From the NCBI RefSeq assembly GCF_003334815.1, contig NZ_QOWO01000082.1: 3,437 nt of DNA; one strand, given 5' to 3'. A program made the translations under genes and the position numbers. Positions 145-3,428 of this stretch are shown in pieces. The stretch comes from Escherichia coli. GTDB lineage: Bacteria > Pseudomonadota > Gammaproteobacteria > Enterobacterales > Enterobacteriaceae. Numbering within the stretch: position 1 is the stretch's first letter; each line of letters starts with the position of its first letter. Below the pieces are notes generated by a model. It did no database searches. It was not told the DNA's origin and worked only from the letters and a program-made list of their open reading frames with translations.

Positions 145-486
145 GTGCCAATGGCTTCTAAAAAATTTTACTCAGATGATGACATCCAGCTGGCAAAAGC
201 TGCCTTATCGGAATTGCCGGACCTCACCGCTCAACGGAAAACATTGCGTGATTTTCTTGATGCCATTCGTGATGACATCATTGTCCTGGTAAGGACAAAG
301 GGTTATACACTGGCAGATGTTCGTGACACGCTTAAAAATGCAGGGTATGAAGTAGGAGAGAAGGCACTTCGTGACATTATTCGGGAAGCAGAATCGAAAA
401 AACCATCCCGCCGTTCTTCCTCTAAAACAGCACCTAAAAAGACAGATTCAGGCAGGAAAGATGGCATCGATATGAACAACAATTGA
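145..486 (+). CDS. Hypothetical small protein (112-113 aa) with Lys/Arg/Ser/Thr-rich C-terminal tail; possibly DNA-binding, function not recognised
   Basis: Open frame 145..486 ending at TGA 484-486. The GTG at 145 is only ~4 nt from GGAGA (136-140), so ATG 151 (spacing ~10 nt) is the more likely start. The tail KKPSRRSSSKTAPKKTDSGRK resembles tails of small nucleic-acid-binding proteins. No family confidently recognised. Confidence 0.6.
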   Translation: MPMASKKFYSDDDIQLAKAALSELPDLTAQRKTLRDFLDAIRDDIIVLVRTKGYTLADVRDTLKNAGYEVGEKALRDIIREAESKKPSRRSSSKTAPKKTDSGRKDGIDMNNN

Positions 487-1440: not shown

Positions 1441-1890
1441 ACGACTGCCGGGTCAGCCAGGTCATTTCCCGGAGGAGCGAAGCTCCTTCTGCCGTCCGGG
1501 TCTTAGGGTATTTCCCCGCAGTGGACCTTTCCGACGGGGGACGCTCACCACGTCACGGGGCAGTTGTCCGGGGGCAGACGCAAAAGTTTTTGACGCCTGC
1601 GGCAAAAAGTTTTGTGGCTGGTACATCTCTCCCCTGGACGACTGAAACGGGATGTGGTCGTGTATGTACCCCCGGAAAGTCCGTCTGCGGAGAACAGGCC
1701 GCAGTGCGGCGGCAGACAGGCAGAGACAGCTGCGCCATCAGGCGCAGTGGCCTTACACACCGTCAGGTGTGCAGGGAGCGCCGCATCCGGCGCGACTGGA
1801 GAAAACCGACGGCACAACAACGGCATGCGGTGGTCACTGGTACACCACTCCCGCACAGGTGAAAACAGAGAAAACAGCACGACATCCATA
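1441..1890. other. GC-rich, apparently non-coding spacer containing a series of short perfect GC-stem hairpins; candidate structured RNA or DNA element
   Basis: Hand counts give roughly 55-70% GC per 60-nt line versus ~50% in flanking genes. All three + frames and two - frames are open simultaneously (stop-codon depletion from GC richness, not coding). Hairpins: 1471-1489 (loop GAA), 1685-1704, 1730-1747 (7 bp, loop ATCA), 1756-1771 (6 bp, loop GTCA), 1778-1793 (6 bp, loop CATC). Confidence 0.4.
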
Positions 1891-1999: not shown

Positions 2000-2251
2000 A
2001 TGACCGGCTGGGAACTGCGAATCTGGCGAAAAAGCATGCTCTGGTCACGCGAAAAAGCGGCCAGAGAATTTGGCGTGACGCAGAGAACATGGCACGCCTG
2101 GGAAAATGCGGAACAGGTGGACGTCACCGTCTGGAGGACCACCCAGGCTCTTTCAGTCCGTGACCTGCTGCCTCACATGCAGGGGATGCGCAAGGCAGAT
2201 ATCATCAGGCGTCTGGAAAATGAACTGGGGGAAACGGCAGGGAATGTGTGA
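2000..2251 (+). CDS. XRE-family helix-turn-helix DNA-binding protein (83 aa), YiaG/HigA-antitoxin-like
   Basis: ATG 2000 preceded by AGGTG (1991-1995); stop TGA 2249-2251. The N-terminal segment GWELRIWRKSMLWSREKAAREFGVTQRTWHAWENAE matches the XRE-type HTH pattern (LS..ElA..lGVs..Tv..WE) seen in HigA/YiaG-like regulators. Confidence 0.75.
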   Translation: MTGWELRIWRKSMLWSREKAAREFGVTQRTWHAWENAEQVDVTVWRTTQALSVRDLLPHMQGMRKADIIRRLENELGETAGNV

Positions 2252-2262
2252 GCGTGATTCAC

Positions 2263-2283
2263 AGCCTGGCAGAATGCCAGGCT
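2263..2283. other. Hairpin (8-bp stem AGCCTGGC / GCCAGGCT, 5-nt loop) between the convergent HTH gene and the orphan small ORF
   Basis: Perfect inverted repeat overlapping the stop codon (TAG, 2284..2282) of the - strand small ORF. No U-tract, so it may be a transcript-stabilising stem or weak terminator. Confidence 0.3.
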
Positions 2284-2488
2284 ACTGCTCATCAGGAAAC
2301 AGCTTTTTCAGTTCTTCACCGGAAAGTCCCGTGACCTCCTGAATCCGTTCCGGCGGCCAGCCTATATCCCGCAGCCGGCAGGCTATTTCCCGCGCCACTT
2401 CAAGAGCCCCTTGTTTAAAACCTTGTTTAAAACCTTCTTTAAAACCCTCGTCGAAACCTTTCTGTATAAGACGTTCTGCAATCGTCAT
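2282..2488 (-). CDS. Orphan small protein (68 aa) paralogous to the C-terminal tail of Rpn nucleases (RpnS-like), with tetrapeptide repeats GFDE-GFKE-GFKQ-GFKQ
   Basis: Its first residues MTIAERL are identical to the internal segment MTIAERL of the upstream Rpn protein. The remainder follows the same pattern (KG...ALEvAreIA...g..pEqIqe.TGLS.EELKK). Nucleotide similarity around the ATG: 2470-2488 vs 2681-2699 is 17/19 identical. The SD is weak (GGAG ~13 nt upstream) and an intrinsic terminator lies just upstream, so expression is uncertain. Confidence 0.55.
   Translation of the reverse strand: MTIAERLIQKGFDEGFKEGFKQGFKQGALEVAREIACRLRDIGWPPERIQEVTGLSGEELKKLFPDEQ
2411..2458. repeat. In-frame 12-bp tandem repeat, 4 units (TTGTTTAAAACC x2, TTCTTTAAAACC, CTCGTCGAAACC), encoding the GFK(Q/E)/GFDE tetrapeptide repeats
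   Basis: Two identical adjacent 12-mers, a third with one mismatch and a fourth diverged, all in codon register on the - strand. A substrate for slipped-strand copy-number change without frameshift. Confidence 0.85.
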
Positions 2489-2510
2489 GCTGTTTGCTCT
2501 GCTCCTGCTG

Positions 2511-2537
2511 GCAAAAAGCCCGGCATTTTGCCGGGCT
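2511..2537 (-). terminator. Rho-independent terminator immediately downstream of the Rpn gene (- strand)
   Basis: On the - strand: AGCCCGGCA-AAA-TGCCGGGCT (7-8 bp GC stem, 3-nt loop) followed by TTTTT. It starts 13 nt after the rpn stop codon (2552..2550). Confidence 0.65.
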
Positions 2538-2549
2538 GTGATGCTCTCA

Positions 2550-2699
2550 TCAGTGAATGACTTTTTTCAGTTCAGCTTCGGAAAGTCCGGTGGCCTGCTT
2601 AATCTGCTCAGGTGTCATCCCCATTTTCTGAAGCTGACGCGCAATGGCAAGGGCTTTTTCAAGCGCACCTTTCTGCTCAAGACGTTCTGCGATTGTCAT
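2550..2699 (-). CDS. Putative intragenic small protein (49 aa, RpnS-like) translated from an internal in-frame ATG of the Rpn gene
   Basis: Internal ATG at 2699..2697 in the rpn frame, preceded by GAGGAT (complement of 2706-2711) with 7-nt spacing. Product would be MTIAERLEQKGALEKALAIARQLQKMGMTPEQIKQATGLSEAELKKVIH. Consistent with reported intragenic antitoxins of Rpn nucleases (from memory). Confidence 0.45.
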   Translation of the reverse strand: MTIAERLEQKGALEKALAIARQLQKMGMTPEQIKQATGLSEAELKKVIH

Positions 2700-3428
2700 C
2701 AGTTTATCCTCATGCTGCGGCAGGCGCTCGGCCAGCGCCCGCATAAATTCCGGTGATACAGAGTCCCCTGCGTTAACGATGTAATGAATCAGAACACGCA
2801 CCTGCTCGTCTGAAATTTCCACCATGACCTGCGGGAGTTTGTCCAGCAGCTCCATCATGTCACGATGGCGGATATGCTTCATCAGCAGCGTCAGTGCGGC
2901 CATCCGGCGATGGTTCATGATTTCATTGTCATCAACGACAGTGATATCAACCAGCGGAAACGGCTTTGTGTATATTTTAGCCGCAAGTGACGGATTCTCA
3001 AAACAGTCCAGCCAGTTCATGCTGTACGGATACGGGCTGCGCTCACCATGATAGAACAGCACCGGAATCACCAGTGGCAACGTTTTGTGCTGCTCCAGAT
3101 GTCTCTGCATCGCCGCCACACTGTAACGTAACATGCGGAAAGGCATGTACAGATTTTCGGTGCTCTGGTGCTCGATGAGCGTATAAACATAGCCATCTTC
3201 ACCCCCGGTGGTTTTCACGCTCCAGAGGATATCGCTGGCGTACTGATGCAGGTCCGGCTCAACAAAGGTGGCGGGTTCCAGCTTCAGCGTGGACAGGTCG
3301 CACAACTGCCGGTACTCCGCCGGAAGATGCAGTTCCAGAAAATCTCTGGCGACGTCGGGATTCGCCAGGAACGACCGGAACGCGGCATCATGCGGCGTGG
3401 GCGTTGTGGTGTTTTTCTTCTTACTCAC
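2550..3428 (-). CDS. Rpn family recombination-promoting nuclease / YhgA-like putative transposase (PD-(D/E)xK nuclease), 292 aa
   Basis: N-terminus TPHDAAFRSFLANPDVARDFLELHLP and the core DILWSVKT...YVYTLIEHQS match the YhgA/Rpn family (Pfam Transposase_31-like) as I recall it. The C-terminal tail ...AERLEQKG...TGLSEAELKK is the typical Rpn tail. GTG start at 3428..3426 with GGAGG (complement of 3433-3437) 4 nt upstream. Gene is complete, but its promoter lies outside the window. Confidence 0.9.
   Translation of the reverse strand: MSKKKNTTTPTPHDAAFRSFLANPDVARDFLELHLPAEYRQLCDLSTLKLEPATFVEPDLHQYASDILWSVKTTGGEDGYVYTLIEHQSTENLYMPFRMLRYSVAAMQRHLEQHKTLPLVIPVLFYHGERSPYPYSMNWLDCFENPSLAAKIYTKPFPLVDITVVDDNEIMNHRRMAALTLLMKHIRHRDMMELLDKLPQVMVEISDEQVRVLIHYIVNAGDSVSPEFMRALAERLPQHEDKLMTIAERLEQKGALEKALAIARQLQKMGMTPEQIKQATGLSEAELKKVIH
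2706..2711 (-). promoter_or_regulatory. Internal Shine-Dalgarno (GAGGAT) inside the Rpn coding sequence, serving the internal ATG at 2699
   Basis: - strand reads GAGGATAAACTG-ATG; AGGA lies 7-8 nt upstream of the ATG, which is near-optimal spacing. Confidence 0.4.

Follow-up and report, generated by a model that had tools for sequence, protein, structure and literature searches.

Proteins of the Rpn family form a toxin-antitoxin phage defence that has been recognised only recently and whose antitoxin is the tail of the toxin itself. The tails are made separately, as small proteins (RpnS) translated from internal starts, and act as antitoxins of the full-length nuclease (RpnL); their first helix carries four-residue repeats, the number of which varies from strain to strain (Zhong et al. 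2023, PNAS, PMC10400941). A 3,437-nt stretch of Escherichia coli contig NZ_QOWO01000082.1 (assembly GCF_003334815.1), here called the window, contains a complete rpn gene and, behind it on the same strand, a separate open reading frame (ORF) of 68 amino acids (aa) that resembles the tail only. What is such a free-standing tail, hereafter the orphan, and does it serve the nuclease next to it? As argued below, we consider it likely that the orphan is an RpnS paralogue of the rpnSs type, located 3' of the gene rpnP2, and that it has been retained as an antitoxin or modulator whose choice of partner is different or less strict.

A stand-alone homologue of the Rpn tail

Residues 1–63 of the orphan product (MTIAERLIQKGFDEGFKEGFKQGFKQGALEVAREIACRLRDIGWPPERIQEVTGLSGEELKKLFPDEQ) align by BLASTP with residues 244–290 of the adjacent Rpn protein (E-value 6e-12), with 29 identities and one gap of 16 residues that is exactly GFDE-GFKE-GFKQ-GFKQ. 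A preliminary description of this DNA had noted that the ORF starts like the internal Rpn tail, with MTIAERL, and differs from it by four inserted tetrapeptides. Both points were borne out: the in-gene tail begins MTIAERLEQKG, the first 11 residues of the two tails are nearly identical, and the gap comprises four GFxx units. The repeats start at residue 12 and were also detected by Tandem Repeats Finder, as a 12-nt period in 3.2 copies at 2409–2446; their number ranges from 0 to 6 among plasmid alleles, in line with the strain variability that had been expected. Within the NCBIfam collection the orphan matches the C-terminal end of Rpn models, covering positions 244–303 of 308 in NF007418 (E 1e-5) and 223–273 of 273 in TIGR01784 (E 1.7e-5), and the precomputed Pfam family PF27070 (HTH_Rpn_C) is present on close homologues of the orphan. 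A Pfam-A scan of the 68-aa protein, using a library version without PF27070, returned nothing significant (best hit Yae1_N, E 0.0014), and PADLOC (2023) matched neither Rpn nor the orphan above chance level. Neither a nuclease domain nor a nuclease remnant was found in the 61-nt spacer between orphan and rpn, in keeping with the initial view of an ORF that has no nuclease domain of its own.

The AlphaFold2 model of the orphan, which is of moderate confidence (predicted local distance difference test, pLDDT, 73), consists of a long helix (residues 3–41) and two short ones (46–53 and 57–63). Its top Foldseek match in the Protein Data Bank (PDB) is 7TH0, 'E. coli RpnA-S' (probability 0.98, 37% identity), with a template modelling (TM) score of 0.71 on the target but an E-value of 0.37. 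A sequence search of the PDB returned designed repeat proteins only and missed RpnA-S, which the fold search did recover. Among the tails of full-length Rpn proteins found, that of the adjacent gene is the closest, with 29 of 47 aligned residues identical, compared with at most 48% identity in other full-length matches. The homology between the orphan and the Rpn tail is genuine, and the architecture is that of RpnS. The preliminary description knew of no stand-alone tail gene and was mistaken on this point: separate tail genes downstream of rpn, termed rpnSs, have been described on chromosomes and plasmids, including rpnESs (ypaA, after rpnE) and rpnCSs, the synthesis of YpaA has been shown with a tagged protein, and the four-residue repeats vary in RpnSs proteins too (PMC10400941).

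Two features of the frame itself deserve mention. The C-terminal FPDEQ of the orphan derives from a 1-nt deletion, by which an ancestral TGATGA double stop is now read as PDEQ. In the other direction the frame is open upstream of the start codon (2489–2566, minus strand), across the hairpin that separates the two genes and up to a TGA inside the end of rpn, near a run of six A; the 85- and 89-aa forms of the orphan in databases are upstream start calls within this open frame. A programmed frameshift at the A6 run was considered and rejected as unlikely, because the frame of the orphan relative to rpn is not constant across plasmids.

The orphan as the last unit of a tandem array

To place the orphan in context, 25 loci were compared, comprising the window, 23 further plasmid records and one metagenome contig. 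All 25 have a separate tail-only ORF on the same strand immediately 3' of an intact rpn. Three types of tail can be distinguished: R (GRxE repeats, 0–6 copies), which is the in-gene tail of the window, F (GFxx repeats, 0–6 copies), which is the orphan, and Q (GIQQ-type repeats). In 18 of the 25 loci, the window included, F stands behind an Rpn with an R tail, and in two others (L011 and L028) it stands behind a Q-tailed Rpn. In three complete plasmids (NZ_CP025846, CP070395 and NZ_CP097714) and one metagenome contig, a Q-tailed Rpn is followed by a free-standing R and then by F. Coverage statistics for this three-tail arrangement are inflated by the repeated junction; six top matches span the whole array, and three of them were verified. 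Since R is free-standing behind Q-tailed Rpn in these plasmids, the tail that is part of rpn in the window is a separate gene elsewhere.

The units of the array share more than the tail itself. Every tail opens with nearly the same 21 nt (ATGACnATTGCAGAACGTCTT), the junction is conserved after every non-terminal tail (with gaps of 58–62 nt in the loci added later), and the R and F cassettes align as homologues over their whole length, leader, stop region and hairpin included. The orphan is thus the last unit of a tandem array in which each cassette consists of a leader, a tail ORF beginning with MTIAERL and a hairpin junction, and arrays with two or three tails exist. The hairpin that closes the array can be recognised as a degenerate copy of the junction hairpin, to which it is homologous through CTGATGAG and the stem; a compensatory change of C:G to U:A preserves the stem, but the U tract is lost. 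It sits between the orphan and a convergent helix-turn-helix (HTH) gene. An earlier suggestion that the orphan is the remnant of a second rpn gene does not fit this picture, as the whole cassette, from the leader to the terminal hairpin, is homologous to a tail cassette only. The shared 21-nt 5' ends and the junctions of about 60 nt fit unequal or homologous recombination that adds, removes or swaps tails, and published work likewise describes gain and loss of rpnSs genes by recombination and names deletion and fusion with the N-terminal domain of rpn as ways in which they can be lost (PMC10400941). The coordinates of the array and of the signals discussed below are collected in Table 1.

Table 1. 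Positions in the window of rpn, the tail ORFs and associated signals.
Feature	Position	Strand	Basis
Orphan, rpnSs-type stand-alone tail gene (F type), 68 aa	2282–2488	-	BLASTP, NCBIfam, AlphaFold2/Foldseek, ratio of non-synonymous to synonymous changes
Four 12-nt GFxx repeats, orphan helix 1, residues 12–27	2408–2455	-	Tandem Repeats Finder
Terminal hairpin of array, degenerate copy of junction hairpin, overlaps orphan stop codon	2263–2283	-	Cassette alignment
61-nt junction between cassettes	2489–2549	-	Junction alignment, first 11 of 25 loci
Terminator-like hairpin: 9-bp GC-rich stem (2517–2537), 3-nt loop, U5 (2512–2516)	2512–2537	-	RNA fold
AGGAG, 13 nt 5' of orphan ATG (long, sub-optimal spacing)	2502–2506	-	Read from sequence
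rpn, 292 aa, PD-(D/E)XK toxin/defence nuclease RpnL	2550–3428	-	PF04754, NCBIfam RpnA-like, TIGR01784
In-gene tail RpnP2S (R type), 49 aa, own start codon	2550–2699	-	Sequence
GAGGA Shine-Dalgarno, 7 nt 5' of internal RpnS ATG	2707–2711	-	Read from sequence

Selection, divergence and expression signals

Fifteen distinct orphan alleles, compared over 52 non-repeat codons, contain 14 synonymous and 12 non-synonymous distinct changes, which corresponds to a per-site ratio of non-synonymous to synonymous changes (N/S) of 0.28 (binomial p 0.0012). The in-gene R tail has an N/S of 0.14 in the same analysis, and the pairwise ratio of non-synonymous to synonymous differences per site (pN/pS) of the orphan is 0.19 over 10 alleles. 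All orphan indels in good-quality sequences are multiples of 12 nt, and, a few low-quality assemblies aside, the ORF is intact in the 25 loci and in about 100 protein variants. The orphan is kept as a protein-coding gene under purifying selection, which counts against a decaying remnant.

The tails are more diverse than their surroundings. Synonymous diversity is two to three times higher in the tails (0.12–0.20) than in the nuclease domain of rpn (0.058) or in the HTH gene (0.067), and the 509-nt tail region is 80–90% identical in most plasmids as against 95–99% for the whole window, a drop that is due in part to repeat indels. Between the F and R tails of the window pS reaches 0.56, with 70% nucleotide identity, so that the duplication is old. 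The orphan may derive from the tail of the adjacent gene, as the cassettes are homologous from end to end and that tail is the nearest among the full-length Rpn proteins found, yet the pairwise distance between the two is large.

The junction hairpin (AGCCCGGCA-AAA-UGCCGGGCU, then UUUUU) is kept in all plasmids examined, with a compensatory change of A:U to G:C in four loci (L006, L007, L016 and L017). As is characteristic of intrinsic terminators, a GC-rich hairpin here directly precedes a U tract on the transcribed strand. The site had been called a strong intrinsic terminator; a conserved hairpin with a U5 tract is indeed predicted, but its strength we infer, because a consensus terminator scan of the window did not include it among the listed sites. 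The arrangement of AGGAG and ATG is conserved in the orphan leaders of all loci.

The position of the orphan behind a terminator-like hairpin and the poor spacing of its Shine-Dalgarno sequence would suit the idea that it is a non-functional by-product whose protein does nothing: either a silent relic that recombination left behind or simply a store of sequence for tail switching. That recombination can add and remove genes of this type was noted by Zhong et al. (2023, PMC10400941), and RefSeq annotates the ypaA gene of K-12 as a pseudogene. We nevertheless regard this explanation as very unlikely in view of the purifying selection on the non-repeat codons, the restriction of indels to in-frame steps of 12 nt in an otherwise intact ORF, and the fact that YpaA is translated (PMC10400941).

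Relationship to the adjacent nuclease

The product of rpn belongs to the YhgA-like Transposase_31 family (PF04754, E 2.7e-78). Positions 3330–3428 of the window (minus strand) are identical to the first 99 nt of the coding sequence in the RpnP2 gBlock AO591, as given in the oligonucleotide table of the Zhong et al. preprint, and over these 99 nt the adjacent rpn matches RpnP2 of Zhong et al. 2023. The reverse primer used to clone RpnP2LS (AO619) anneals at 2449–2470 of the window, which agrees with the stated '101 bp downstream'; beyond the rpn stop codon the construct contains the hairpin, the orphan leader and orphan codons 1–13 only. RpnP2LS is non-toxic and protects MG1655 against T-even phages (Zhong et al. 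2023, PMC10400941). Because the construct held just 13 codons of the orphan, the latter is dispensable for the neutralisation of RpnP2L and for defence in that setting.

The rpn gene is itself a mosaic. The linker that joins the nuclease domain to the tail (2700–2866, codons ~188–243) exists in two very different haplotypes (seen in L011 and L017), with a pN of 0.275 between alleles, and mosaic breakpoints lie either at rpn codon ~188 or exactly at the start of the tail (L018).

A comparison of the two tails in each locus leads in the same direction as the cloning result. The repeats of the orphan and of the in-gene tail differ in sequence (GFxx versus GRxE) and, in 18 of 18 R-F loci, in number; the in-gene R tail of the window has no GRxE repeat, and those of other plasmids have 1–6. 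Repeat number is known to matter in at least one case, as RpnCL is blocked only by an RpnS with an equal number of repeats, and a single extra repeat abolished cross-neutralisation (PMC10400941). Because its first helix differs in sequence and length from that of the RpnP2L tail and RpnP2LS works without it, the orphan most probably does not serve the neighbouring nuclease as its primary antitoxin.

It might instead be a second-tier regulator, pairing with RpnP2L or RpnP2S despite the difference in helix-1 length and tuning their balance as an extra antitoxin or an anti-antitoxin. The arguments for this come from the comparison of loci and tails: the orphan is on the same strand and immediately 3' of rpn, in a linkage conserved in every locus examined, its first 11 residues are almost those of the in-gene tail, and the adjacent R tail is more similar to it than that of any other full-length Rpn. 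Set against these are the lack of toxicity and the protective effect of RpnP2LS with the orphan cut after codon 13, the consistent mismatch in repeat type and number, and the precedent of RpnC, in which one added repeat ended cross-neutralisation (PMC10400941). On balance a second-tier role appears unlikely, if worth keeping in mind.

A cognate toxin with an F-type tail was looked for in two protein searches of 5.8 billion clusters, one with the orphan as the query and one with a chimera of the in-gene leader and the F tail, which would rank fusions first. Neither query retrieved a full-length Rpn that ends in an F tail, and none was found on E. coli chromosomes. Consequently, the orphan segment has no credible counterpart in the protein clusters as the 3' end of an intact, longer rpn, the finding that would have reduced it to a truncation product, and no cognate F-tailed toxin is known from the protein-cluster searches and the E. 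coli genome survey. Two apparent fusions were rejected: protein P0086 (106 aa), an rpn-orphan fusion, stems from a contig full of frameshifts, with rpn itself in pieces, and protein P0276 (67 aa), with the in-gene leader and an F tail, from a draft scaffold with many N gaps exactly at this repeat. The R-type tail, by comparison, is the commonest in-gene tail of the family. As for the orphan DNA, a match is present in 1,341 of 5,426 complete E. coli genomes, and in 984 of these it extends over 80% of the ORF or more; the 1,442 matching places are divided into 1,427 on plasmids and 15 on chromosomes.

The retained antitoxin or modulator that we favour could then work as follows. The orphan would be a tail of earlier origin, retained after displacement or duplication, and transcription past the hairpin would give a low level of its protein. 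The protein would adopt the predicted three-helix fold, in which the long first helix, extended by the four-residue repeats, would mediate dimerisation. By analogy with RpnS, the product is probably a dimerising, RpnS-like antitoxin or modulator, and it might act as a mimic that binds those Rpn tails whose helix 1 is compatible. Several observations weigh against this reading. The missing F-tailed nuclease is one. The expression signals, the weakest point, are another: a terminator-like hairpin precedes the orphan, 13 nt lie between its AGGAG and the ATG, and the 61-nt junction shows no evident promoter. The mismatch in R and F repeat numbers is only suggestive, because with 12 distinct combinations the probability of finding no match at random is about 0.15, the repeat variation could be neutral slippage, and the rule of repeat-number specificity has been published for RpnC only. 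The dispensability seen with RpnP2LS, finally, applies to MG1655 with the construct on pBR322*, and leaves room for a role in the native plasmid or in conjugation.

Position in the leading region of IncI plasmids

About 2,000 conjugative plasmids of the IncI complex (IncI1/Igamma/K/B/O/Z), hosted by E. coli, Salmonella and Shigella, match the window over its full length, mostly with 95–99% identity. In annotated records the gene order, beginning on the side of the origin of transfer (oriT), is nikB-nikA (the relaxase side of oriT), a small plus-strand gene annotated as MobC, a DUF4942 gene, a non-coding stretch of 570 nt, an 83-aa HTH gene on the opposite strand (2000–2251, plus strand), the 68-aa ORF and rpn, followed by two small ORFs, ardA, psiA, psiB and a ParB-like gene. 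All of these, including rpn and the 68-aa ORF, face oriT, except for the MobC and HTH genes. The rpn/orphan locus, which lies between nikA/oriT and ardA-psiA-psiB and shares a strand with those genes, is in the IncI leading region, the DNA that enters the recipient first, and the orphan has the position and orientation for transcription from the transferred strand.

The neighbourhood has several further features. The 113-aa ORF beside oriT (145–486, plus strand) carries the RefSeq name 'molybdopterin-guanine dinucleotide biosynthesis protein MobC'; the ORF has no NCBIfam match, and the name therefore seems to be a mislabel of a mobilisation accessory protein. A 44-nt element occurs in two copies (1888–1931 and 1955–1998), 67 nt apart, each with the palindrome AAAAAGTGAA-N5-TTCACTTTTT; situated just upstream of the 83-aa HTH gene, the pair are probably operator sites for that regulator. 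In one plasmid (L026, NZ_CP025855.1) an IS100-family element occupies the usual place of the HTH gene, directly beside the orphan tail gene.

A GC-rich, non-coding segment at 1450–1820 (plus strand), upstream of the DUF4942 gene, folds as single-stranded DNA (ssDNA) into a long predicted hairpin (-100.8 kcal/mol, z -6.4), computed on the strand that would serve as template for the minus-strand genes. To judge from its sequence and fold it looks like a single-strand promoter of the Frpo/ssi type found in leading regions. IncI1 plasmids are reported to contain Frpo-like ssi elements, from which early transcription of the entering single strand is driven (PMC12672017). A copy of the segment with 82% identity lies at 10337–10662 of plasmid record L001, upstream of the two small ORFs that precede rpn, and if this copy is a Frpo-like ssi element, early expression of rpn and the orphan in transconjugants would be possible.

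A role in cross-immunity or anti-defence can be imagined on this basis, in which orphan tails, expressed from the leading region early in the recipient, would neutralise Rpn nucleases with matching tails on resident sibling plasmids or in hosts. This would agree with the location of the locus between oriT/nikA and ardA-psiAB, with the 82%-identical copy of the hairpin element ahead of the operon in which rpn and the orphan come last, with the occurrence of the R tail both as the commonest in-gene tail and as an orphan behind Q-tailed Rpn, and with the enrichment of anti-defence genes in leading regions (PMC11541004). It is difficult to reconcile with the failure to find an F-tailed full-length Rpn in the protein clusters or on E. 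coli chromosomes, where only 15 of the 1,442 DNA matches are located, and early induction is not universal among leading-region genes (PMC12672017). We consider such neutralisation improbable, and see an equally small chance that the array is a record of past tails, analogous to the orphan immunity genes of contact-dependent inhibition (CDI) and Rhs loci. Were orphan tails early-expressed anti-Rpn factors, free antitoxins preserved from earlier or rival generations of tails that act while the plasmid enters, the array and its hypervariable repeats would record an arms race between plasmids instead of one between host and phage, a prospect to which we likewise give little credence.

Significance and comparison with known systems

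The rpnSs class, its repeat variation and its gain and loss by recombination are already known, and in this respect the orphan is a new and incremental example. What is new is the cassette array with two or three tails, the free-standing occurrence in other plasmids of a tail that is in-gene in the window, the absence of a credible F-tailed nuclease from the databases searched, the purifying selection on the orphan, and a number of orphan repeats (0–6) that varies independently of that of the in-gene tail. The leading-region position is also new and, as far as gene order and orientation can indicate, suggests a role during conjugation. On the function of free-standing tails, the evidence of the 2023 paper is limited to YpaA synthesis, and no later work on separate Rpn tail genes was found in the literature searched. 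The present locus is well suited for testing such tails. The adjoining RpnP2 is the one Rpn with a demonstrated defence phenotype, natural alleles already supply 0–6 repeats and arrays of two or three tails, and matches to the orphan occur in about one in four complete E. coli genomes, on resistance plasmids that are widespread.

The closest known counterparts are RpnESs (YpaA) and RpnCSs. Like the orphan, each is a second copy of the tail with its own gene immediately 3' of rpn, on the same strand and with an MTIAERL start, and they share with it the strain-variable number of four-residue repeats and the gain and loss by recombination. The details differ, however. The ypaA gene starts 12 nt after the rpnE stop codon, behind a duplicated, well-spaced Shine-Dalgarno sequence and without a hairpin, and is nearly identical to the in-gene tail, whereas the orphan is preceded by a 61-nt junction with a terminator-like hairpin and by another leader, and its divergence is old (pS 0.56, 70% nucleotide identity). 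Moreover, the F tail type is never found in-gene, and up to two orphans occur in series. The K-12 copy of ypaA (L014, 12817–13002) is annotated in RefSeq as a pseudogene, although its tagged protein was detected by Zhong et al.

With the intragenic antitoxins RpnAS (PDB 7TH0) and RpnP2S, the orphan has in common the domain, the predicted fold and the location of the repeats in helix 1, 8–20 residues after the initial methionine. RpnS is the dimerisation partner of the RpnL tail. The orphan, in contrast, is encoded by its own gene and not from an internal start, and no RpnL with an F tail was found in our searches; being encoded separately, it is not forced to co-evolve with the tail of a toxin. 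Stand-alone proteins with DUF4351 (PF14261) or HTH_Rpn_C (PF27070) domains are more distant relatives. Among the best 150 of 436, most are, like the orphan, small (40–140 aa); GFxx-like repeats are present in many, and two or three domains in tandem occur in some. They are scattered over phyla, whereas the orphan is a constant part of the IncI leading region.

CDI (cdiA-CT/cdiI) and Rhs loci offer a parallel at the level of organisation. In these systems, recombination at a conserved boundary pushes out variable C-terminal modules, which pile up downstream as orphans. The resemblance to the tail array is one of analogy only, as the proteins are unrelated, and there is a difference in what is being displaced: the module of the tail array is at once the oligomerisation domain of the toxin and its antitoxin, and every orphan has retained a start codon of its own.

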